DNA from: a virus
Taxonomy: Duplodnaviria; Heunggongvirae; Uroviricota; Caudoviricetes
Strand: one strand, 5' to 3'
IMG/VR virus record: IMGVR_UViG_2693429635_000026
Length of the DNA: 8,466 nucleotides
How positions within the stretch are numbered: position 1 is the first letter of the stretch; each line of letters opens with the position of its first letter. Made by a program: the position numbers and the translations under genes. A model generated the notes under the pieces. It saw only the letters and a list, made by a program, of their open reading frames with translations, did no database searches and was not told the DNA's origin. Below, piece after piece: positions 1 to 8,466 of this stretch.

Positions 1-483
1 ATGACGAAGAAAAAAGCACATAAACCTGGTTCAGCGACCATCGCGCTTAACAAGCGCGCCCGTCACGAATACTTTATCGAAGAAGAGTTCGAAGCGGGAC
101 TTGCCCTGCAAGGCTGGGAGGTTAAATCCCTGCGCGCAGGAAAAGCCAATATCAGCGACAGCTACGTCCTTCTGCGTGACGGAGAGGCATTTCTGTTTGG
201 CGCTAACATCACGCCAATGGCCGTGGCCTCCACGCATGTGGTGTGCGATCCTACCCGTACCCGCAAGTTACTTCTCAACCAGCGCGAACTGGACTCATTG
301 TACGGTCGCGTCAATCGAGAAGGCTATACCGTAGTGGCGCTCTCCCTGTACTGGAAAAATGCCTGGTGCAAAGTGAAAATCGGCGTCGCCAAAGGTAAAA
401 AACAGCACGATAAACGTTCAGATATCAAAGAACGCGAATGGCAGGTGGATAAAGCACGTATCATGAAAAACGCCCACCGTTAA
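1..483 (+). CDS. smpB: SsrA-binding protein SmpB (trans-translation factor), complete 160 aa
   Basis: ATG at 1, TAA at 481-483. The 160-aa translation ([30 protein letters not shown]...[10 protein letters not shown]) matches enterobacterial SmpB as I recall it, and the gene sits immediately upstream of ssrA as in the conserved smpB-ssrA arrangement. Confidence 0.96.
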
Positions 484-644
484 ACCTGCACTCCAATTAT
501 TGACCAGTTCCTCACCGCGCCTCCCTCTCCGGCGGCGCGAATCAACATCTTATTGGCTATCACATCCGACACAAATGTTGCCATCCCATTGCTTAATCGA
601 ATAAAAATCAGGCTACATGGGTGCTAAATCTTTAACGATAACGC

Positions 645-690
645 CATTGAGGCTGGTCATGGCGCTCATAAATCTGGTATACTTACCTTT
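645..690 (+). promoter_or_regulatory. putative sigma70 promoter for ssrA (extended -10)
   Basis: TGgTATACT at 675-683 is an extended -10 element ending about 15 nt upstream of the mature tmRNA 5' end. The -35 is weak or ambiguous (TGGTCA at 654-659 with 18-bp spacing). Assigned from position and motif only. Confidence 0.4.
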
Positions 691-697
691 ACACATT

Positions 698-1060
698 GGG
701 GCTGATTCTGGATTCGACGGGATTTGCGAAACCCAAGGTGCATGCCGAGGGGCGGTTGGCCTCGTAAAAAGCCGCAAAAAATAGTCGCAAACGACGAAAA
801 CTACGCTTTAGCAGCTTAATAACCTGCTTAGAGCCCTCTCTCCCTAGCCTCCGCTCTTAGGACGGGGATCAAGAGAGGTCAAACCCAAAAGAGATCGCGT
901 GGAAGCCCTGCCTGGGGTTGAAGCGTTAAAACTTAATCAGGCTAGTTTGTTAGTGGCGTGTCCGTCCGCAGCTGGCAAGCGAATGTAAAGACTGACTAAG
1001 CATGTAGTACCGAGGATGTAGGAATTTCGGACGCGGGTTCAACTCCCGCCAGCTCCACCA
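698..1060 (+). ncRNA. ssrA: tmRNA (transfer-messenger RNA, SsrA), full length 363 nt
   Basis: Starts GGGGCTGATTCTGGATTCGACGGG (tRNA-like 5' end). The internal tag frame GCA AAC GAC GAA AAC TAC GCT TTA GCA GCT TAA at 787-819 encodes the degradation tag ANDENYALAA. The 3' end is GGTTCAACTCCCGCCAGCTCCACCA (T-arm, acceptor, CCA) at 1036-1060. Confidence 0.95.
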
Positions 1061-1188
1061 ATCATGATTGGACGGTGTAAGGACAACACCAACAAAAACA
1101 GGAAGTTAGCAGTCTCAGCAGGACACCGACCAGACGGTGAGGAGACAAAAAAGGATACGCAAAGGAGCCGCGGCTCTCAAGTGTGAAA

Positions 1189-1217
1189 GAAGCCCGCAAA
1201 TTGCGGGCTTTTTTATT
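1189..1217 (+). terminator. rho-independent terminator downstream of ssrA
   Basis: GC-rich hairpin AGCCCGC-aaatt-GCGGGCT (1191-1209) followed by a T-run TTTTTTATT. Confidence 0.6.
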
Positions 1218-1269
1218 GATCAGTCAACAATAAACAGTAACCGAATGAGAATTTAATAAGGATATTCAT

Positions 1270-2301
1270 ATGGAAGCTACTGTGGATTCGATTGATTTTC
1301 TGATCCGTAGTGAAGATGATTTTCTAAACTTTCTGGAAGAAATGAAAGCCCGAGAGGGGCTTGATTCTAAAGAGTTTATTTTCCCTAACGTAAAGTTTGC
1401 AGGCTGGCCATCCTTAGACATAAATGTAAAAGGAGAGCGGTATCATTCATCAATTACATCAGCAATGTTGTTTGGTATGTCAATGCTCAACGAGGAGATA
1501 CAGCGGGCGTTTGCAACCATACGATACGGATCGCAGAATCTTCAACGCTTGACTAATGAAGACAAGCAACGACTTGATATAAATTTTAAAATTAGCGAAG
1601 GTTCTAGTGATGCGGAAGGCACCACTGACAAGATCATCAACGCAGTAACTGATTTTTTGCGAGATACTATGTCTGGACTGAACGGCTGGCAGAAAATGCT
1701 TGTTATAATCACAATGGTTGGCGCGGCCAGCACATGTGGTTATCACTACATTTCAGAAAATGCCGTAACAGAAAGACATGCAACTGATCGGCAGGTTGAA
1801 ATTGCAAAAACCACATCCGATGGCATAAACAAAGCCATAGAAGCAACATTAGATTATAAAATCTATGGGAAATCAGCGATTAGCGATAAAGTTACTAGTC
1901 ACGGACAAGCAGGTAAAAGTGCTTTAGTGAAGCAATTAGCTGCTGATCCTACTGTCGAAACCGTGACTTTAGGAAATGAGAAACTAACACGACAAGACCT
2001 AAATACCTACAACAGCCGACAATCTGTAGATAGAGAACGTAAAGAACGAACTGATATATTTTCCATCAAAGGTGTAACCAGAACAGGGCCAACAAATCAG
2101 GATATTAATATTAACGTTGTTAGGGTCTCTAATGACGAATGCTTCACAATCAAAGCTTCAGCTGATGTTATCACCCAAGATGAGTTGACAGCTATTGTTG
2201 ACGCTTTGTCAAACAACTCTCATATTAAAATCAGTTACTTAGAGGTAATTGAAAAGGGTGCTGTTTCTATAGGTCAGTTCAACACTATTGTTTCAGAATA
2301 A
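1270..2301 (+). CDS. hypothetical protein, 343 aa, with a central hydrophobic (putative transmembrane) segment; no recognised domain
   Basis: Long uninterrupted ORF with a Shine-Dalgarno-like AAGGA about 8 nt upstream of the ATG (TAAGGATATTCATATG). AT-rich codon usage consistent along its length. The stretch WQKMLVIITMVGAASTCGYHYI near residues 140-161 is hydrophobic. The antisense ORFs 1480..1746 and 1542..1733 are shadows. Confidence 0.72.
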   Translation: MEATVDSIDFLIRSEDDFLNFLEEMKAREGLDSKEFIFPNVKFAGWPSLDINVKGERYHSSITSAMLFGMSMLNEEIQRAFATIRYGSQNLQRLTNEDKQRLDINFKISEGSSDAEGTTDKIINAVTDFLRDTMSGLNGWQKMLVIITMVGAASTCGYHYISENAVTERHATDRQVEIAKTTSDGINKAIEATLDYKIYGKSAISDKVTSHGQAGKSALVKQLAADPTVETVTLGNEKLTRQDLNTYNSRQSVDRERKERTDIFSIKGVTRTGPTNQDININVVRVSNDECFTIKASADVITQDELTAIVDALSNNSHIKISYLEVIEKGAVSIGQFNTIVSE

Positions 2302-2352
2302 TCACTTAACCCCATTTATGTCGGTTGAGGTTATAAGTCACGGAGACCAGAT

Positions 2353-2697
2353 ATGTCCTTAAAGTATGCACATGAAAAATTTCATACTGCAGTACTTACT
2401 CTTGCGGGCCATGGAAGTATTCAAGAACGCTTGATTAATTCGTATGTTTTTAGCCTTGGGCATCTTAAAACAGCCGATGATATTCCAAATGCCTTACAAA
2501 GCAGGTTCGATGAATTATGTAAGGAACTGACTAAGTTTGATGCCACTGGCGATGAGGGGCGAGTTCAAGCAACAGTATCAAAACTTAACGATTTCGAGAT
2601 CAATAAACTGATCGAAGATATTGTCAGTCTTAACGATGATATTTGCATGAAATTGGCTCTGACGGATGAGACTTACCAAGACATACACCAAAGTTAA
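2353..2697 (+). CDS. hypothetical protein, 114 aa, acidic and probably alpha-helical; likely co-transcribed with the upstream 343-aa ORF
   Basis: ATG at 2353 preceded by GGAGA about 7 nt upstream. Same strand as ORF 1270..2301 with a 51-bp gap, and followed by a hairpin terminator. No recognised motifs. Confidence 0.65.
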   Translation: MSLKYAHEKFHTAVLTLAGHGSIQERLINSYVFSLGHLKTADDIPNALQSRFDELCKELTKFDATGDEGRVQATVSKLNDFEINKLIEDIVSLNDDICMKLALTDETYQDIHQS

Positions 2698-2724
2698 TTG
2701 ATTAAATTCAAAAAGTTAACGTTC

Positions 2725-2750
2725 AACCAGCCAGTTTTTGGCTGGTTTAT
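2725..2750. terminator. putative bidirectional hairpin terminator between convergent genes
   Basis: AACCAGCC-agttttt-GGCTGGTT (8-bp stem, 2725-2747) followed by TTTATTGTC on the plus strand and flanked by an A/T tract on the other side. It lies between the stop of ORF 2353..2697 (+) and the stop of ORF 2782..2994 (-). Confidence 0.45.
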
Positions 2751-2781
2751 TGTCTTATAATATTCTTGCTCGAATGATGCA

Positions 2782-2994
2782 CTATTTATGATGTAATCCG
2801 GACATCAGTTCATGGACAAGATTATCTCTTTCATTGTGTTGCAACCGTAAATGCATAGCAAAAAGGTGAGCACTATCCTCATTCCTCTTCAAGCCATGCT
2901 GTTCAAGATACCCGAAAAAACGGCTTCTCTTATCCGCTATTTCCTGAGTCTGACGTGCAACATTTACCAAATTTTCTAGCGTTTTTCTTGGCAT
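2782..2994 (-). CDS. hypothetical small protein, 70 aa
   Basis: The minus-strand ATG at 2992-2994 is preceded by a strong Shine-Dalgarno AGGAGG (revcomp of CCTCCT at 3002-3007) at good spacing. Basic and His-rich; no family recognised. Confidence 0.5.
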   Translation of the reverse strand: MPRKTLENLVNVARQTQEIADKRSRFFGYLEQHGLKRNEDSAHLFAMHLRLQHNERDNLVHELMSGLHHK

Positions 2995-3192
2995 ACTATT
3001 TCCTCCTGAAATTGTTGTAATTCACTAGGATATTCATTTTAATTTGTATCATTTAGTACCAAAACCGCTATCAATTAACAAAGCCATCGTTGTGGTTTAC
3101 CTTGCAGCCGTTTTTTGTCATTGACTCTATGTGAAAATAATGAATCATCATGAGATTGGCTCACACGTTCTTGAATTCGACGAGCTGTGTCT

Positions 3193-3747
3193 TTATTTAT
3201 CTCCTGCCGGAAACCTCTGATACAAAGTCGATACGCCAACATCATAGATAATCGCAACTTTCTGGCGCGGAACTCCTGATGCAATTAATCGTCCGGCTTG
3301 TGCCCATTGTTCTGGTGTAAGTTTGGGACGACGTCCACCAATTCGTCCCTGTGCGCGAGCAGCTTCCAGTCCAGCTTTTGTTCGTTCAACAATCAGTTCT
3401 CGTTCCATTTCAGCCAGGGCCCCCATCACATGAAAGAAAAAGCGCCCCATTGGGGTACTGGTATCAATTGAATCCGTCAGACTACGAAAGTTGATGCCTC
3501 GTTCGCGCAACTCCTCCACCAGCACGACAAGATGCCGCATACTGCGCCCCAGTCGGTCCAGTTTCCAGACCACCAGCGTATCGCCTGCCGATAATGTCCT
3601 GAGCAGTTTTTTCAGTCCCGGCCTTTCGGACTTTGTACCGCTTATCTTGTCTTCAAAAATCAGCTCGCATCCTGCACAGTTCAGCGCATTACGTTGTAGA
3701 TCTGTGTTCTGGTCATTTGTTGACACACGTACATAGCCAATAAGCAT
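3193..3747 (-). CDS. pin: serine-recombinase DNA invertase, Pin/Gin/Hin/Cin family (184 aa)
   Basis: Translation from the internal Met (MLIGYVRVSTNDQNTDLQRNAL...GDTLVVWKLDRLGRSM...GINFRSLTDSIDTS...MGRFFFHVMGALAEMERELI...) has the resolvase/invertase catalytic N-terminus with the active-site Ser in VRVSTNDQ and a C-terminal HTH-like region. It is close to E. coli Pin as I recall it. I take the start as the ATG at 3745-3747 (SD AGGGAGA upstream) rather than the upstream Met at 3783. A gix/pix-like site lies 55 bp upstream. Confidence 0.93.
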   Translation of the reverse strand: MLIGYVRVSTNDQNTDLQRNALNCAGCELIFEDKISGTKSERPGLKKLLRTLSAGDTLVVWKLDRLGRSMRHLVVLVEELRERGINFRSLTDSIDTSTPMGRFFFHVMGALAEMERELIVERTKAGLEAARAQGRIGGRRPKLTPEQWAQAGRLIASGVPRQKVAIIYDVGVSTLYQRFPAGDK

Positions 3748-3773
3748 GGTAGATCTCCCTGACAAAAGCAGGA

Positions 3774-4268
3774 ATGATGCCATTTGCTCGTTATTTCTGC
3801 ATTTTCATAAACGTTGGTTTGGGAGAAGCGGCAAAACGAAATGTGGGCAACGGGGAAAACCAAATCCCTGATATGTCTTTCTGGACGGTTACTGGTGGCA
3901 ATGGAAATTTTGTGATTCGTCAACCTGACGGGCTAATCATTCAGATGGTTACTGTAAGTATAAGCGGTCCAGTGGCGATGAATGGAATGACTGATAATGC
4001 TTATGCCATTACAGGTTCTAATAAGTCTTATATTGCCACAGCCACATTGCCCTTTGTATTTCCTAATAAGGTGCTGGGCGTTATCCCTCTGGTATCAACA
4101 ACAGCTTATGGTGGTGTATCCAGTAATATTACAGGTTCATACGCGACGGCGGTTTGTTCTTTTGCCGCTGTCAGGGGGAATAATACGATTGTGTTCAAAG
4201 TCGACAAACCACTGAATGCAGCCTTTCCTTCAGATACCAGCGTCTCAGCGTTAATCATTGGACGGTAA
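3774..4268 (+). CDS. silent tail-fibre variable C-terminal cassette (Sv copy) with no constant N-terminal region
   Basis: From about 3816 onward the reading frame is identical to the C-terminal roughly 150 aa of the tail fibre gene at 7063..7806 ([17 protein letters not shown]...SALIIGR). The first roughly 14 codons (MMPFARYFCIFINV) are antisense read-through of the pin leader and are not part of the homologous sequence. Probably not expressed in this orientation. Confidence 0.5.
   Translation: MMPFARYFCIFINVGLGEAAKRNVGNGENQIPDMSFWTVTGGNGNFVIRQPDGLIIQMVTVSISGPVAMNGMTDNAYAITGSNKSYIATATLPFVFPNKVLGVIPLVSTTAYGGVSSNITGSYATAVCSFAAVRGNNTIVFKVDKPLNAAFPSDTSVSALIIGR
3802..3827 (+). other. invertase crossover site A (gix/hix/pix-like 26-bp site, proximal to pin)
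   Basis: TTTTCATAAACG-TT-GGTTTGGGAGAA. The half-sites fit the TTnTCnnAAACC pattern of Hin/Gin-family sites around a central 2-bp crossover. The inner half plus crossover (TTGGTTTGGGAGAA) is identical to sites B and C. Confidence 0.6.
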
Positions 4269-4270
4269 GA

Positions 4271-4714
4271 ATGAACTCAGTATTCTTTTCACCCGCAAGT
4301 AAAAGTTTTTATCTGCAAGAATTGTTTCCAGAATATGAGGATGCGGGAACGCTTCCTGATGATGTTATTGAAATTACCAGAGAAACATATGAGCAATTTC
4401 TTGGGCTGCATCCAGAAGGGAAAGAAATTGGCGCTGACAGTTCAGGACGGCCAATATGGATTAATTCCCCGCCGCCTTCAAAAGAGGATGAGATGCTGGC
4501 GGCTGAAATGAAAAAGATATCTTTGGTTTCAGAAGTCAATACCTACATCAATACCCATCAGTGGCCTGGCAAAGCTGCTATTGGTCGTCTGAAAGGTTAC
4601 GAGCTGGAACAATATAATTTATGGCTGGATTATCTGGACGCACTGGAACTGGTTGATACCTCCAGTGCTCCAGATATTGAATGGCCTACGCCTCCGGTAG
4701 TTCAGGCCAGATGA
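4271..4714 (+). CDS. tail fibre assembly protein (Mu U-like chaperone), copy A
   Basis: 147 aa with the Tfa-type C-terminal motif ...DTSSAPDIEWPTPP. Starts 2 bp after the Sv stop, suggesting translational coupling. Identical to the ORF at 6617..7060 (-). Confidence 0.82.
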   Translation: MNSVFFSPASKSFYLQELFPEYEDAGTLPDDVIEITRETYEQFLGLHPEGKEIGADSSGRPIWINSPPPSKEDEMLAAEMKKISLVSEVNTYINTHQWPGKAAIGRLKGYELEQYNLWLDYLDALELVDTSSAPDIEWPTPPVVQAR

Positions 4715-5291
4715 CATCCGGCGCGGTGCTGGTATCTGTTGCAGTCACCGCGTCAATGTAATCCAGCACAGCGTTAAGCCGGGTTGTTTCTGCCTGCGTC
4801 AGCTTCCGCCCGGCCTGCAATTTCAGCTGAATCAGACTAATGGAAGCCATAGCAGCATCAATCAGTGACTGGCGCCGTACTTCTGCCGCGTCTACTGCGG
4901 CGTTATGCTGTGCCTCAGTATCGGTCACCCATTTCTCACCATCCCATTTATCGTATGACGTTAACGGGGCGATAGTGGTTGTATTTTCAGGGTAATCACC
5001 CGGAACTGTGATTTCTTTTGATTCTCCTGTTTCGGTGCTATAGACGATTTCACCGCGATGGTCTGGCACATATTCCCATGAGTTAAAATCTGCAGAACGG
5101 CAAATTGCATAACCAGCTTTATATGAGCCAGGAGCATCTAAACAGGAACATGCCGGGATACCAACACCCACAGCAAGATATTCAGTTGATGTGGAAATAT
5201 ATTCCCGTGTTTCACCATCATAATTATAAACGGTAATGTCTCCGGCCTTTGTGGCGATGAGTTCATTATTTAATACAGCTTTACTTATCAT
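4686..5291 (-). CDS. tail fibre assembly protein (Mu U'-like chaperone), copy A
   Basis: 201 aa ending ...DTSTAPDVIWPELPEA (Tfa family C-terminal motif). Identical to the ORF at 6040..6645 (+). Its 3' end overlaps the 3' end of 4271..4714 convergently by 29 bp. Confidence 0.82.
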   Translation of the reverse strand: MISKAVLNNELIATKAGDITVYNYDGETREYISTSTEYLAVGVGIPACSCLDAPGSYKAGYAICRSADFNSWEYVPDHRGEIVYSTETGESKEITVPGDYPENTTTIAPLTSYDKWDGEKWVTDTEAQHNAAVDAAEVRRQSLIDAAMASISLIQLKLQAGRKLTQAETTRLNAVLDYIDAVTATDTSTAPDVIWPELPEA

Positions 5292-5570
5292 GCAGCCCTC
5301 ACAATATAATTAAAGGCGATGTTACGGGAGCGGGTTTCAGATGCTGTGCGAACTGAGCGAGATGCGTCGAATGTCCAGTTATAAGCGCCATAACCCTCAA
5401 TAATTTCGGCTTCCTTTAGACCTGTAGATAATACTTGCCCATGTTGACTAAATGGCCCTGAACTAAGTACGTCTCTAAAAAGCTGGGTACGCCCAAAAGA
5501 ACCAACAATATTCTGAATTGCATCATTCTGTGCAGATAATAAGTTACGACCAGAGTCAATCCCGCGCCCA
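5288..5570 (-). pseudogene. 5'-truncated copy of the tail-collar-type variable cassette Sv' (C-terminal roughly 93 codons, no start)
   Basis: Reverse complement of 5761..6043, which is the C-terminal part of ORF 5576..6043 (...ETRSRNIAFNYIVRAA). The duplication breakpoint at 5570/5571 cuts the cassette mid-gene, and there is no in-frame Met in the retained part. Confidence 0.55.
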
Positions 5571-5584
5571 TTGGTTTGGGAGAA
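5559..5584 (+). other. invertase crossover site C (conserved inner half and crossover, degenerate outer half)
   Basis: ATCCCGCGCCCA-TT-GGTTTGGGAGAA. The crossover and inner half are identical to sites A and B, but the outer half is a poor match. Recombination with site B would fuse the constant part of S in frame to Sv'. Confidence 0.55.
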
Positions 5585-6043
5585 GGTTCGGCATTACCCG
5601 TTGGTGTGCCTGTTCCGTGGCCTTCCGCCACTCCGCCAACGGGGTGGCTAAAATGTAACGGAGCAGTATTTTCTTCTGAAAAGTACCCAAATCTGGCAAA
5701 GGCTTACCCAACATTAAAATTACCAGATTTACGCGGTGAATTTATTCGTGGCTGGGATGATGGGCGCGGGATTGACTCTGGTCGTAACTTATTATCTGCA
5801 CAGAATGATGCAATTCAGAATATTGTTGGTTCTTTTGGGCGTACCCAGCTTTTTAGAGACGTACTTAGTTCAGGGCCATTTAGTCAACATGGGCAAGTAT
5901 TATCTACAGGTCTAAAGGAAGCCGAAATTATTGAGGGTTATGGCGCTTATAACTGGACATTCGACGCATCTCGCTCAGTTCGCACAGCATCTGAAACCCG
6001 CTCCCGTAACATCGCCTTTAATTATATTGTGAGGGCTGCATGA
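5576..6043 (+). CDS. alternative tail-fibre variable C-terminal cassette Sv' (phage tail-collar-like receptor-binding domain), currently unfused
   Basis: The translation carries motifs I recall from tail-fibre C-termini of the tail-collar type (ALPVGVPVPWPSATPPTGWLKCNGAVFSSEKYPNLA...LPDLRGEFIRGWDDGRGIDSGR...ETRSRNIAFNYIVRAA). The ORF-track start is a TTG lying inside site C, so the real product would be made only as a fusion after inversion. Its stop overlaps the downstream tfa start (ATGA). Confidence 0.75.
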   Translation: MGEGSALPVGVPVPWPSATPPTGWLKCNGAVFSSEKYPNLAKAYPTLKLPDLRGEFIRGWDDGRGIDSGRNLLSAQNDAIQNIVGSFGRTQLFRDVLSSGPFSQHGQVLSTGLKEAEIIEGYGAYNWTFDASRSVRTASETRSRNIAFNYIVRAA

Positions 6044-6645
6044 TAAGTAAAGCTGTATTAAATAATGAACTCATCGCCACAAAGGCCGGAGACATTACCG
6101 TTTATAATTATGATGGTGAAACACGGGAATATATTTCCACATCAACTGAATATCTTGCTGTGGGTGTTGGTATCCCGGCATGTTCCTGTTTAGATGCTCC
6201 TGGCTCATATAAAGCTGGTTATGCAATTTGCCGTTCTGCAGATTTTAACTCATGGGAATATGTGCCAGACCATCGCGGTGAAATCGTCTATAGCACCGAA
6301 ACAGGAGAATCAAAAGAAATCACAGTTCCGGGTGATTACCCTGAAAATACAACCACTATCGCCCCGTTAACGTCATACGATAAATGGGATGGTGAGAAAT
6401 GGGTGACCGATACTGAGGCACAGCATAACGCCGCAGTAGACGCGGCAGAAGTACGGCGCCAGTCACTGATTGATGCTGCTATGGCTTCCATTAGTCTGAT
6501 TCAGCTGAAATTGCAGGCCGGGCGGAAGCTGACGCAGGCAGAAACAACCCGGCTTAACGCTGTGCTGGATTACATTGACGCGGTGACTGCAACAGATACC
6601 AGCACCGCGCCGGATGTCATCTGGCCTGAACTACCGGAGGCGTAG
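6040..6645 (+). CDS. tail fibre assembly protein (U'-like), copy B, cognate chaperone of Sv'
   Basis: 201 aa, Tfa C-terminal motif, start overlapping the Sv' stop (ATGA), SD GAGGG upstream. Confidence 0.88.
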   Translation: MISKAVLNNELIATKAGDITVYNYDGETREYISTSTEYLAVGVGIPACSCLDAPGSYKAGYAICRSADFNSWEYVPDHRGEIVYSTETGESKEITVPGDYPENTTTIAPLTSYDKWDGEKWVTDTEAQHNAAVDAAEVRRQSLIDAAMASISLIQLKLQAGRKLTQAETTRLNAVLDYIDAVTATDTSTAPDVIWPELPEA

Positions 6646-7060
6646 GCCATTCAATATCTGGAGCACTGGAGGTATCAACCAGTTCCAGTGCGTCCAGATA
6701 ATCCAGCCATAAATTATATTGTTCCAGCTCGTAACCTTTCAGACGACCAATAGCAGCTTTGCCAGGCCACTGATGGGTATTGATGTAGGTATTGACTTCT
6801 GAAACCAAAGATATCTTTTTCATTTCAGCCGCCAGCATCTCATCCTCTTTTGAAGGCGGCGGGGAATTAATCCATATTGGCCGTCCTGAACTGTCAGCGC
6901 CAATTTCTTTCCCTTCTGGATGCAGCCCAAGAAATTGCTCATATGTTTCTCTGGTAATTTCAATAACATCATCAGGAAGCGTTCCCGCATCCTCATATTC
7001 TGGAAACAATTCTTGCAGATAAAAACTTTTACTTGCGGGTGAAAAGAATACTGAGTTCAT
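6617..7060 (-). CDS. tail fibre assembly protein (U-like), copy B, cognate chaperone of the expressed tail fibre
   Basis: 147 aa. Starts 2 bp after the stop of the tail fibre gene at 7063..7806 on the same strand. Tfa-type C-terminus. Confidence 0.88.
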   Translation of the reverse strand: MNSVFFSPASKSFYLQELFPEYEDAGTLPDDVIEITRETYEQFLGLHPEGKEIGADSSGRPIWINSPPPSKEDEMLAAEMKKISLVSEVNTYINTHQWPGKAAIGRLKGYELEQYNLWLDYLDALELVDTSSAPDIEWPTPPVVQAR

Positions 7061-7062
7061 TC

Positions 7063-7806
7063 TTACCGTCCAATGATTAACGCTGAGACGCTGGTATCTG
7101 AAGGAAAGGCTGCATTCAGTGGTTTGTCGACTTTGAACACAATCGTATTATTCCCCCTGACAGCGGCAAAAGAACAAACCGCCGTCGCGTATGAACCTGT
7201 AATATTACTGGATACACCACCATAAGCTGTTGTTGATACCAGAGGGATAACGCCCAGCACCTTATTAGGAAATACAAAGGGCAATGTGGCTGTGGCAATA
7301 TAAGACTTATTAGAACCTGTAATGGCATAAGCATTATCAGTCATTCCATTCATCGCCACTGGACCGCTTATACTTACAGTAACCATCTGAATGATTAGCC
7401 CGTCAGGTTGACGAATCACAAAATTTCCATTGCCACCAGTAACCGTCCAGAAAGACATATCAGGGATTTGGTTTTCCCCGTTGCCCACATTTCGTTTTGC
7501 CGCTTCTCCCAAACCAAGGTTTTCGAGAGCCGTTTTCACCGTGCCATCAGATTTGATATCGCCAAACGGATTCTTGCGGCTTAACAGCAGCGCACGAAGC
7601 GCGGTAAGCAGCTGGTCATGCCGCCCCTTCTCCAGGCTGGCACCGGATGCCTCCACCACGCTGCAGAGTTCTTCCTGCAACATGTCAAAGTAGTCATCAT
7701 CCAGATCGGTGGCAGGTGTGCCGGTCTGGGGGTTACCACGGGTAAAACCGTTCTTACCCGCGCCGAACTTATCCTTCTGCGCGGTTTTCGTGTCTATACG
7801 ATGCAT
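7063..7806 (-). CDS. phage tail fibre protein S (constant N-terminal part 7518..7806 fused to variable part Sv 7063..7517), 247 aa
   Basis: ATG at 7804-7806 (minus strand) with SD GGAG upstream, immediately after the stop of the upstream tail gene. Crossover site B lies inside the ORF at the ...ENLG|LGEAA... junction, as expected for Mu S, P1 and e14-type invertible tail fibre genes. Confidence 0.88.
7504..7529 (+). other. invertase crossover site B (gix/pix-like, inside the tail fibre gene at the constant/variable boundary)
   Basis: Plus strand TTCTCCCAAACC-AA-GGTTTTCGAGAG. Its reverse complement CTCTCGAAAACC-TT-GGTTTGGGAGAA is inverted relative to sites A and C, with both half-sites fitting the TTnTCnnAAACC pattern. 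Confidence 0.65.
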
Positions 7807-7809
7807 GGA

Positions 7810-8464
<655 letters not shown>

Positions 8465-8466
8465 CT

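Follow-up and report, generated by a model that had tools for sequence, protein, structure and literature searches.

The tmRNA gene ssrA is a well-documented integration hotspot, and its serial occupancy is reportedly the subject of Williams's 2003 'Traffic at the tmRNA gene'. In tandem arrays at ssrA, 3′ fragments of the gene are left behind at displaced positions and are often degenerate, and in a lambda-like layout int lies at one end of the element while tail fibres and cargo lie at the other. For Citrobacter phage phiNP, an ssrA-integrating temperate myovirus (Petty et al. 2011; PMC6456863), the 25-bp 3′ end of ssrA was identified as the integration core by experiment, in that K-12 lysogens were verified and ssrA was found to be reconstituted. 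For Escherichia phage LLS, a lambdoid siphovirus, attP was deduced from 29-bp identity to the ssrA 3′ end (PMC12315714). The integrase family, the 25-bp core and the distal position of int are already established for these two phages. P4-type islands such as CP4-57 also occupy E. coli ssrA, with int adjoining the gene (PMC10107115).

Here we describe an 8,466-nucleotide stretch of DNA (the window) that opens on the chromosomal core gene smpB (1..483, + strand), which encodes the SsrA-binding protein and was identified as an ORF annotated WP_000162574.1 in identical records. A consensus scan predicted a sigma-70-like ssrA promoter at 654..683 (+), consisting of TGGTCA, an 18-nt spacer and TATACT with an extended TG, and we infer its position to be about 7-15 nt 5′ of the mature tmRNA end. 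ARAGORN located a 363-nt tmRNA with the tag ANDENYALAA at 698..1060 (+), carrying CCA at its 3′ end, and Rfam RF00023 covers the whole of it at 295.8 bits (model positions 1-374); the original prediction that ssrA is full length to its CCA was thus borne out. Its view that ssrA serves as an integration site is supported by the phiNP core and by full-length relatives of the element, found in the genomes PEC122 and SA186. The att core is the last 25-30 nt of ssrA, as determined experimentally for phiNP (PMC6456863): the 25 bp at 1036..1060 (+), GGTTCAACTCCCGCCAGCTCCACCA, are the same as attP/attB of phiNP, in line with attL/attR of SA186, and aligning attL with attR of PEC122 gave exact identity over 1031-1060. 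An att core within 1061-1190, or in the palindrome found there, as had been proposed, is ruled out by the PEC122 and SA186 att alignments and by the phiNP experiment; the palindrome instead forms a conserved hairpin in a non-coding block at 1061-1216. Beyond the phiNP-type 25-bp att sequence, the block, cargo genes and pin are colinear with PEC122, as in an attL of the phiNP/LLS family. The proximal end had been described as lacking an integrase and an att repeat, and this holds for the whole window: the ssrA 3′ end did not recur even with up to three mismatches allowed, and neither the ORFs nor Pfam yielded a tyrosine integrase.

The full-length relatives indicate where the integrase belongs. 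PEC122 matches the window at 99.8% identity over 1-3828 and at 97.3% over 7495-8373, and its series of ssrA, block, cargo, pin, tail fibre and ymfQ runs on into a complete prophage with baseplate, tail, HK97-type head, P27-type terminase, lysis, Q, replication and cI/cro genes and a site-specific integrase. In PEC122, SA186 and phage phiNP, xis-int lies far from ssrA and adjoins attR, the distance between integrase and ssrA being about 37 kb in PEC122 and about 46 kb in SA186. The attR of PEC122 is an exact 30-nt ssrA 3′ copy located past int and DarT/NADAR, and that of SA186 comprises an ssrA 3′ copy of about 35 nt together with a second block, 1.4 kb past int. The genomes of phiNP and LLS are arranged as xis-int-attP-block-cargo-tail fibres, and in about a dozen IMG/VR loci an LLS-type Int reads toward a 26-39-nt ssrA 3′ fragment that is followed by the block. 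The integrase (about 390 aa) and excisionase of this type are absent from the window, and also from 25 kb of downstream sequence in the near-identical genomes 602687 and CD45, whereas they are distal in PEC122 and SA186. Judged by its sequence, the window element belongs to a lambdoid prophage of the phiNP/LLS family, of which it represents the ssrA-proximal end. The expectation that ssrA elements carry a P4- or P2-type integrase near the att site holds for P4-type elements such as CP4-57 but not for this lambdoid family.

With phiNP the element shares the 25-bp core, a block that directly follows it, and the order int, attP, block, cargo, tail fibre, Mu-like baseplate and tail, and the integrase of the full-length relative PEC122 is 92.7% identical to that of phiNP. 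However, phiNP lacks a Pin invertase and an invertible tail-fibre segment, carries ddi, hicAB and an acetyltransferase gene as cargo, encodes a YmfQ-like protein of just 32% identity, and is complete and inducible, whereas the window element is truncated by an insertion sequence (IS). The likeness to LLS comprises a same-family integrase (86.7% identity to that of PEC122), an ssrA 3′ copy and block that together match window 1022-1217 at 89-90% identity, and the order int, attP, block, cargo slot, serine invertase (79% to Pin) and invertible tail fibres; LLS differs in having a head and tail of the lambda type in place of a Mu-like contractile tail, in its cargo, and in being a free virion genome, whereas the window holds what is most likely a remnant. 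P4-type islands share the target gene ssrA, but their integrases, unrelated at about 25% identity, are encoded immediately beside ssrA, and the islands supply other downstream sequence and another terminator. The inversion system resembles those of e14 and the Mu/P1-type switches (Pin/Gin/Cin) in its serine invertase with Resolvase and HTH_7 domains, its inverted 26-bp crossover sites, and its alternative tail-fibre C-termini with assembly chaperones. Unlike e14, the element lies at ssrA and not at icd, and unlike all of these switches it includes an additional, third half-site, and part of the segment is duplicated in inverted orientation, an arrangement found in no other genome examined.

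The first genes beyond the block are three cargo ORFs, of 343 aa (1270..2301, +), 114 aa (2353..2697, +) and 70 aa (2782..2994, −). PHROGs placed only the 343-aa protein, in a phage family of unknown function (phrog_6191, E = 6.8e-38), and assigned no family to the other two, which are hypothetical in relatives; Pfam and PADLOC gave no match for any of the three. They are followed by pin (3193..3747, −; pinE in relatives), a serine DNA invertase gene of the Hin/Gin/Pin type with Resolvase (1.5e-51) and HTH_7 (3.6e-13) domains in Pfam. The crossover site that adjoins pin, read from the sequence as TTTTCATAAACG TT GGTTTGGGAGAA at 3802..3827 (+), has an inverted 26-bp counterpart at 7504-7529 (−), and both segment orientations occur in the near-identical genomes 602687 and CD45, for which 3802-3827 is the switch point between the two states. 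Self-comparison revealed two copies of the invertible tail-fibre segment. Copy 1 (3809..5571) is truncated and, by its PHROG tail-fibre and assembly families, contains a tail-fibre C-terminus (3774-4268, +) and two tfa genes (4271-4714, +; 4686-5291, −). Copy 2 (5571..7522; 1,952 bp) is complete, has the opposite orientation and opens with a crossover half-site at 5571-5584. The two copies form a 1,763-bp inverted repeat with 99.94% identity; the 5571 junction was found in none of 5,426 genomes, and the whole 8,466-bp window was reproduced by none of the genomes examined, the inverted duplication being unique among them. The tail fibre gene (7063..7806, −; Gp53-like_C and annotation in relatives) spans the crossover site at 7504-7529, where its constant N-terminus is fused to its variable C-terminus. 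It is followed by the Mu Gp48-like baseplate gene ymfQ (7810..8369, −; Pfam Phage_Mu_Gp48, 8.7e-27), the 5′ end of which has been removed by an IS and the homology of which to the intact PEC122 sequence stops at 8373. The prophage is terminated at 8370 by the left end of this IS3-family element (8370..8466, +), with the inverted repeat (IR) TGTAGTGGCACAC and a transposase ATG at 8442, and the window ends 97 nt inside it. The order of tail fibre, two assembly genes and YmfQ/Gp48 is that of PEC122 and phiNP, and gene calls, Pfam and PHROGs agree with the initial description of cargo ORFs coming first and of the invertase and tail end facing ssrA.

Foreign DNA had been thought to begin right after the CCA of ssrA, but about 160 nt at this position are widely conserved: homologs of 1061-1220 with 88-100% identity occur in 4,170 of 5,426 complete E. 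coli genomes, in 2,537 of which the homolog lies directly 3′ of ssrA, and strain- or lineage-specific sequence begins only at about 1217-1221. A search of 596 Gb of genome contigs with the 17-mer CACCGACCAGACGGTGA gave 120 matches, nearly all chance hits in high-GC sequence, and the genuine ones came from E. albertii and Klebsiella indica. The block is also present within three sequenced phage genomes: in the LLS virion genome and in phiNP it is internal and contiguous with the ssrA core, and in Ayreon it stands behind its own predicted promoter with no part of ssrA. Block variants track the DNA downstream of them, with 92-97% identity to the window before Pin and 87-91% before ypjA, and displaced blocks are preceded by degenerate ssrA 3′ fragments such as CGCCAGC-CCACCA. 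In HUE1, which lacks this prophage, ssrA is followed by a 1061-1220 homolog and then by ypjA. Conservation of 1061..1269 in island-free genomes had been named as a sign of native flank, and HUE1 does show it for 1061-1220; the copy in the window is not thereby native, since the attR structures and the virion genomes indicate that the phage brings its own copy. For a single block, phage-borne and native origin look the same in sequence, and we infer the assignment here from the position of the crossover. The block is probably duplicated at attL and attR.

Taken together, the window is very probably attL plus the ssrA-proximal 7.3 kb of an IS-shortened lambdoid prophage of the phiNP/LLS integrase family. 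Relatives show how the family integrates: a tyrosine integrase recombines the 25-30-bp phage core with the terminal 25-30 nt of ssrA, which are identical to it. Along the phage genome, xis, int and (cargo) precede the attP core and the 156-nt block, after which come the cargo slot, (invertase), tail fibres, tail, head, lysis, Q, replication and repressor. Integration in this order brings the tail-fibre and cargo end beside ssrA, and the integrase comes to lie at a distance of 37-46 kb, adjoining attR. The phage provides a new ssrA 3′ end as well as its own copy of the block and terminator, so that ssrA remains intact, and the resident block is pushed to attR; an imperfect direct repeat of about 195 bp results. 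In the present lineage, a deletion associated with the IS3-family element at 8370 would have taken out the prophage from the beginning of ymfQ onward, with int, xis and attR, along with the resident block and most of ypjA, and the outcome would be an immobile remnant that retains the cargo ORFs, the Pin invertase and the invertible tail-fibre segment.

Three other accounts of the locus can be weighed against this integration and decay. That 1061-1220 is the native ssrA terminator flank and that the prophage entered near 1217 by a mechanism unrelated to ssrA would fit the presence of the sequence in most E. coli genomes and its position directly 3′ of ssrA in island-free HUE1, K. indica and E. 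albertii, but we regard it as very improbable, because full-length relatives have an ssrA 3′ copy and then a second block at the integrase end, which places the crossover within ssrA and upstream of the block, because LLS and phiNP genomes hold core and block contiguously, and because experiments have shown phiNP to integrate at the 25-bp ssrA core (PMC6456863). A decayed P4- or P2-type island that lost its ssrA-adjacent integrase is barely credible, even though CP4-57-type elements are the textbook occupants of ssrA and their int adjoins the gene (PMC10107115): neither a remnant of a P4/P2 integrase nor its flank is present between ssrA and the cargo genes, no integrase ORF occurs at 1061-3192, and the ssrA-block-cargo-pin stretch matches a complete lambdoid prophage colinearly at 99.8%, the sole integrase of that prophage being distal. 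PEC122 does contain a P4-like integrase, but it shares only about 25% identity with the family Int and is part of a separate island past attR. This reading was rejected, being contradicted by colinearity with PEC122, SA186 and phiNP. It is also unlikely, if less so than either of these, that the prophage is complete in the source genome and that the IS3 element is a simple insertion into ymfQ, with the baseplate-to-integrase part and attR lying past the window. In favour of completeness, the window stops inside the IS, full-length relatives exist in PEC122 and SA186, and the source genome is outside the 5,426 examined. Against it, the ymfQ/IS3 junction at the right end of the window recurs with 100% identity in 602687 and CD45, two genomes of at least 99.9% identity in which the IS abuts a ypjA fragment without its C-terminus, followed by pinH′, ypjC and ileY, with no remainder of the prophage. 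Neither genome has an annotated integrase in the 20 kb downstream; in 602687 no ssrA-3′ repeat occurs within 25 kb at up to three mismatches, and the IS, with an IR pair read from the sequence, has no target-site duplication. The downstream search for a repeat and an integrase that had been suggested thus gave neither in 602687 and both at the distal end of PEC122 and SA186. As the IS joins the prophage directly to truncated ypjA in these two genomes, with int and attR gone, the integrase was most likely lost by IS-associated deletion, and the element would be a locked-in remnant of a phiNP/LLS-family member rather than a functional one; for the source genome, loss of int and attR is deduced from 602687 and CD45. 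Of the two options originally left open, a distal integrase applies to the family relatives, and a remnant is very probable in this lineage.

We also examined the block as a structured RNA. The conserved non-coding block (1061..1216, +; 156 nt) folds into four hairpins and a terminator. Hairpin 1 pairs 1074-1078 with 1086-1090 around an invariant AGGAC loop, two nested helices are formed by 1112-1116/1142-1146 and 1124-1128/1135-1139, and hairpin 4 (1164-1168/1173-1177) is the palindrome recorded earlier. The terminator stem (1188-1197/1203-1212) is followed by the T run TTTTTTATT, so that folding and sequence identify an intrinsic terminator on the + strand, the stem of which is conserved by compensatory GC to AU changes. 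A simple consensus terminator scan did not list this + strand terminator at 1188-1212, and between the CCA and 1188 neither scan nor folding gave a terminator-like hairpin on the + strand. The minimum free energy of the block has a z score of -4.08, and 98% of its predicted pairs are paired across homologs compared with 40-51% for slid partners (RNAalifold, pair counts). Double-sided changes occur at 8 pairs, although this covariation could largely trace to a few clades, and the helix 1124-1139 is invariant partly because the search pattern fell within it. Wobbles comprise 37 G·U against 5 A·C, an excess that points to the + strand as the RNA strand. The perfect 12-bp palindrome GAGCCGCGGCTC is indeed present at 1165-1176 as reported; the window holds six such palindromes against about 2 expected, and what sets this one apart is solely that it forms a conserved hairpin in which compensatory changes occur. 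A coding reading of the 40-codon ORF at 1064-1186 was rejected, as other variants have an in-frame TGA. From homologs, folding and covariation, the block is most likely the 3′ trailer of pre-tmRNA, phage-borne here and ending at an intrinsic terminator at 1188-1216. At a permissive E-value only tmRNA exceeded its threshold in Rfam, with sub-threshold matches to SraG, amino-acid leaders and PrrB/RsmZ falling mostly on the terminator, and literature searches gave no paper for the block sequence and nothing specific for a tmRNA trailer or sRNA; the block is apparently undescribed in Rfam and the searchable literature. In resemblance only, it recalls tRNA 3′ external transcribed spacers with a role as RNAs, such as 3′ETS-leuZ, in being a conserved structured segment directly 3′ of a stable-RNA gene with the operon terminator at its end, and Csr/Rsm sponge RNAs in having about one GGA per 18 nt and one AGGAC in a hairpin loop. 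Its seven GGA motifs in 128 nt exceed the 3.7 ± 1.3 of shuffled sequences (p = 0.015), and five are kept in at least 73 of 77 copies. Unlike Csr/Rsm sponge RNAs, however, just one GGA lies in a predicted loop, and the PrrB_RsmZ model scored 19 bits (E = 0.05) against a gathering threshold of 44.

The block might instead be conserved as DNA, that is, as the P′ arm of attP with putative Int-arm, IHF or Xis sites and with repeats and palindromes that bind protein, a reading we consider doubtful. It would account for the position beside the core, where a P′ arm is expected, for the direct repeats GACGGTG (about 1071 and 1133) and ACACC(A/G)AC (about 1085 and 1123), and for GGA spacings of 11, 20, 20, 20, 12 and 11 nt, near multiples of the DNA helical repeat. 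However, the block adjoins ssrA in HUE1 and K. indica in the absence of a phiNP/LLS-type integrase, Ayreon has the block but an unrelated integrase, compensatory pair changes are not required of binding sites, the wobble counts favour the + strand over the other by 37 to 5, and a canonical terminator closes the block. We put forward, tentatively though as somewhat more probable than the P′ arm, that the block is a functional mobile RNA module, a pre-tmRNA trailer carried in attP and swapped in at integration. Such a trailer might be needed for proper 3′ processing or termination of tmRNA; alternatively, it might be freed as a stable small RNA, and the GGA motifs would fit a CsrA-type protein-binding RNA.

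For annotators, a missing integrase beside the tmRNA gene is not unusual in this family, the integrase of which is ssrA-distal, and the IS-truncated remnant represents routine genome decay. A foreign boundary drawn at the CCA of ssrA would be misplaced, and attL/attR repeats of about 195 bp can mislead island-boundary tools. If the block is an RNA module, the Ayreon copy would be a free-standing sRNA gene, and the usual E. coli chromosomal copy (block, ypjA, pinH′) would be a fossil left behind by an earlier member of this phage family. A real RNA element at this position would bear on tmRNA maturation and on why ssrA-targeting phages bring more than the minimal core.

The tmRNA gene ssrA lies at 698-1060 on the + strand, downstream of smpB (1-483). 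ARAGORN finds it as the sole tmRNA in the window, with the enterobacterial tag ANDENYALAA, and it matches the Rfam tmRNA model end to end (295.8 bits). It is followed by three ORFs at 1270-2994 without family assignment, except for the first, which belongs to a phage family without known function (phrog_6191), then by a serine invertase gene (pin, 3193-3747, - strand), tail-fibre C-termini with assembly chaperones, a tail-fibre gene (7063-7806, -) and a Mu Gp48/YmfQ baseplate gene (7810 onward, -). No tyrosine integrase was found in the window, and a search for the ssrA 3' end allowing up to 3 mismatches returned no second copy there. ARAGORN, Rfam and the ORF and domain calls agree with the original prediction, which described an intact ssrA followed by cargo ORFs, an invertase and a tail end in an integrase-free window.

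The window is E. coli DNA: strain 602687 matches it at 100% identity over 1-5571, as does strain CD45 over 5571-8466. The full-length relative PEC122 shares 99.8% identity over 1-3828 and 97.3% over 7495-8373, and there the ssrA-cargo-pin-tail fibre-ymfQ stretch continues as a complete prophage with a Mu-like baseplate, contractile tail, HK97-type head, P27-type terminase, lysis, Q, replication and cI/cro genes and an early-left operon, terminated by a site-specific integrase ~37 kb from ssrA. This integrase is 86.7% identical to that of LLS, a lambdoid phage isolated as a virion (PMC12315714), and 92.7% identical to that of the inducible Citrobacter myovirus phiNP (PMC6456863). In a second relative, SA186, the junction between ssrA and the conserved non-coding segment directly 3' of it (1061-1216; the block) is 100% identical to window 981-1140 and is followed by restriction-modification cargo and a complete lambda-like prophage. 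We conclude that the window element is of a known kind, a phiNP/LLS-family prophage integrated at ssrA and seen here from its attL end.

At the ssrA 3' end, phiNP uses the 25 bp GGTTCAACTCCCGCCAGCTCCACCA as attP/attB, as verified by junction sequences from E. coli K-12 lysogens, and integration restores an intact ssrA (PMC6456863); for LLS, attP was deduced from a 29-bp identity to the ssrA 3' end (PMC12315714). The phiNP core corresponds to window 1036-1060. PEC122 has an exact 30-nt ssrA 3' copy, ACGCGGGTTCAACTCCCGCCAGCTCCACCA, on the far side of int and of a DarT/NADAR pair. SA186, the cleanest picture of the family arrangement within one genome, has its family integrase ~46 kb from ssrA and, ~1.4 kb past it, an attR consisting of a ~35-nt ssrA 3' copy and then a second block. 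The same attR is seen at ~12 IMG/VR loci, where the family integrase reads toward a 26-39-nt ssrA 3' fragment followed by the block. The att core is hence entirely inside ssrA, at 1036-1060, or 1031-1060 by PEC122 identity, and not in 1061..1190 as had been suggested; the perfect 12-bp palindrome noted in that segment, GAGCCGCGGCTC, is present at 1165-1176 and is hairpin 4 of the block, not the core.

LLS and phiNP share the gene order xis, int, (one cargo gene), att core, block, cargo slot, (invertase), tail fibres and remaining virion genes. This is the layout of lambda, in which attP separates int from the tail-fibre/'b region' side. Integration at the ssrA 3' end brings the tail-fibre/cargo side into contact with ssrA and leaves the integrase at the distal end. 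Since the family integrase is distal in the relatives, having no integrase beside ssrA is normal for this family; one near the att site is what P4-type islands such as CP4-57 would lead one to expect, and their integrase is of an unrelated type (~25% identity). A separate P4-type integrase island follows the distal ssrA 3' copy of PEC122, making this ssrA locus a tandem array. This second island past attR (L004 8848-15583) has its integrase directly after the displaced copy, carries an ATP-binding protein gene and a frameshifted response-regulator-domain gene, and ends at an IS3 truncating ygaQ.

Homology of the window to the intact PEC122 prophage ends at 8373, and at 8370 an IS3-family element starts with its left inverted repeat, TGTAGTGGCACAC...; by sequence reading, its transposase ATG is at 8442. 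Strains 602687 and CD45 both carry this prophage/IS junction at 100% identity, and in both the IS runs directly into the N-terminal 441 bp of ypjA, with a pinH (recombinase) fragment, ypjC and tRNA-Ile beyond. No integrase is annotated within the next 20 kb in either strain, and no ssrA 3' copy was found within 25 kb in 602687 with up to 3 mismatches allowed. The inverted repeats of the IS are TGTAGTGGCACACTAAATTTGGCCAC and TGTAGTGGTCAAGTAATATTGGCCAC (window 8370-8466; 602687, L001 26627-27862), and its flanks in 602687 differ (CGGA on the left, GTGT on the right), so that there is no target-site duplication, in keeping with a deletion by which the IS came to join ymfQ to ypjA. Together these features are the hallmark of an IS-associated deletion, one that took out the start of ymfQ, int, attR and all of the prophage between them, as well as the resident block and most of ypjA. 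Because the window stops 97 nt into the IS, we infer the same event for the source genome, where we consider it highly probable. Of the two possibilities raised originally, a distal integrase holds for the family relatives, and the 602687/CD45 junction indicates that this copy is probably an integrase-less remnant, its prophage end in the window most likely locked in by the IS-associated deletion.

Homologs of window 1061-1220 occur in 4,170 of 5,426 complete E. coli genomes, directly after ssrA in 2,537 of them. In most of the others the block is more distant, behind a partial, often degenerate ssrA 3' fragment, as in K-12 with gactccgccagc-ccacca at the CP4-57 distal end; displaced ssrA 3' fragments are a known mark of serial integration at ssrA (PMC10107115, Table 1, after Williams 2003). 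The block is also found 3' of ssrA in Klebsiella indica and E. albertii, and internally in the LLS and phiNP genomes. Island-free E. coli HUE1 has the order ssrA, block, ypjA, pinH fragment, ypjC, ileY. The whole of 1061-1269 is common to only 45 of the 5,426 genomes, lineage-specific DNA starting at ~1217-1221, just past the terminator. The sequence does not, as first read, turn foreign immediately after the CCA end, and conservation in island-free genomes applies to the block but not to the entire 1061..1269 span. Because the crossover lies inside ssrA, the block in the window is the phage-brought copy; the resident copy ends up at attR. Block variants are 92-97% identical to the window before Pin and 87-91% before ypjA, and this co-segregation with downstream DNA is consistent with a phage-brought block. 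A partial block, comprising its central and 3' part, occurs in phage Ayreon (L006 6991-7106, 87.5% identity) without an ssrA 3' copy and beside an integrase unrelated to the phiNP/LLS family, and could represent a free-standing version. The Ayreon copy has lost the hairpin 1 loop and has no family terminator; a promoter annotated by the depositors overlaps the block start.

The resident flank in most E. coli reads block, ypjA (-), small ORF, pinH' (-) (DH10B, L003 3984-4160; HUE1, L248 9081-14390; 602687, L001 27862-28877), matching in order and orientation block, cargo, pin (-) in the window and block, cargo, fin (-) in LLS. Between the pinH fragment and the window pin, identity is 85%. Judged from sequence, the 'native' flank appears to be the fossil of an earlier phiNP/LLS-family phage, with the ypjA autotransporter in the cargo slot. 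Phages of this family have variable cargo on either side of attP: SA186 carries a type II restriction-modification pair and a GIY-YIG protein (L249 1232-5088), phiNP hicAB, ddi, an acetyltransferase and an AAA ATPase (L250 241-1835, 42059-43846), and PEC122 the DarT/NADAR pair beside int (L004 15712-17028). The three window ORFs in this slot are therefore candidates for defence or lysogenic conversion; a PADLOC search of them gave no match.

The 1,952-bp Pin-invertible tail-fibre segment is present in 1.9 copies (3809-7522), a truncated copy (3809-5571) standing head-to-head with a complete inverted copy (5571-7522), with inverted arms of 1,763 bp each and a 188-bp spacer. Crossover sites lie at 3802-3827 (+), 5571-5584 (+, half-site) and 7504-7529 (-), and the copies join at 5571 exactly on the TT crossover dinucleotide of a third half-site. 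The two ≥99.9%-identical genomes, 602687 and CD45, have one segment copy each, and the two copies are oppositely oriented; none of 5,426 genomes contains the 5571 junction. The duplication arose either through aberrant Pin-mediated rearrangement in the source only, or as an artefact of assembling a population mixed for the two orientations.

The block is non-coding: its sole ORF (1064-1186) is broken by TGA in many variants, which rules out a coding reading. Compared with dinucleotide shuffles, folding of the window copy gives a z-score of -4.08. Of 108 copies gathered (77 distinct), 32 diverse ones were aligned, and RNAalifold returned four hairpins and a terminator: hairpin 1 (1074-1078/1086-1090) with an invariant AGGAC loop, helix 2 (1112-1116/1142-1146) surrounding helix 3 (1124-1128/1135-1139), hairpin 4 (1164-1168/1173-1177) and the terminator (1188-1197/1203-1212) with a T run after the stem. 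Helix 3 is invariant in the alignment, partly by construction, as it holds the 17-mer search pattern. In hairpin 1 the outer pair is GC (n=15) or AU (n=14) and the inner pair AU (n=15), UA (n=10) or CG (n=6); hairpin 4 changes from CG to UA and GC to AU, and the terminator from GC to AU. Taking all helices together, paired cells make up 98.0%, compared with 40-51% when partners are slid by 1-3 columns, and 8 pairs show double-sided changes against 1-3 in these controls; 0 of 500 shuffles matched the observed values, counts that are not probabilities as the sequences are related. The phiNP copy, which stands outside the search-pattern selection, has a compensatory change in helix 2 (GTCCC/GGGAC for GTCTC/GAGAC). 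Perfect 12-bp palindromes are not unusual in themselves (six in the window, ~2 expected); GAGCCGCGGCTC is kept as hairpin 4 through compensatory changes. Among non-Watson-Crick pairs, + strand G·U outnumbers A·C by 37 to 5, which points to an RNA transcribed in the ssrA direction.

Consensus scanning and folding revealed no + strand terminator between the CCA end and 1188, and the simplest reading is therefore that the block would form the 3' trailer of the ssrA primary transcript. A 14-bp perfect palindrome, CCAATCATGATTGG at 1058-1071, overlaps the CCA end and extends 11 nt into the block; ATCATGATTGG is near-invariant among block copies, with CTTTAGACAGG in its place in phiNP. As RNA the palindrome could hide the CCA end within the precursor, and in DNA form it could offer a symmetric site for binding. 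A consensus scan also detected a minus-strand terminator-like hairpin and T run within the block (1172-1158), and in K-12 and HUE1 the convergent ypjA stops 2 nt past the block, whose 3' end (1188-1216 region) may be a bidirectional terminator. Seven GGA motifs occur in 1061-1188 (3.7 ± 1.3 in shuffles, p = 0.015), starting at 1070, 1081, 1101, 1121, 1141, 1153 and 1164 with spacings of 11, 20, 20, 20, 12 and 11 nt. Five of the seven are kept in at least 73 of the 77 distinct copies, and the one at 1121 is lost in ypjA-linked copies (GCAAGAC or GCAAAAC). This pattern might fit an RNA bound by a CsrA-type protein, or proteins that contact the DNA along one face; Rfam Csr/Rsm models scored below threshold on the block. 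We found no Rfam entry for the block, no match by sequence in the searchable literature and no mention in the searched passages of the LLS paper (PMC12315714). That it is a functional mobile RNA module is a tentative and rather doubtful reading. The conserved structured trailer block, common to phage and chromosome, is the one feature here that is perhaps worth pursuing.
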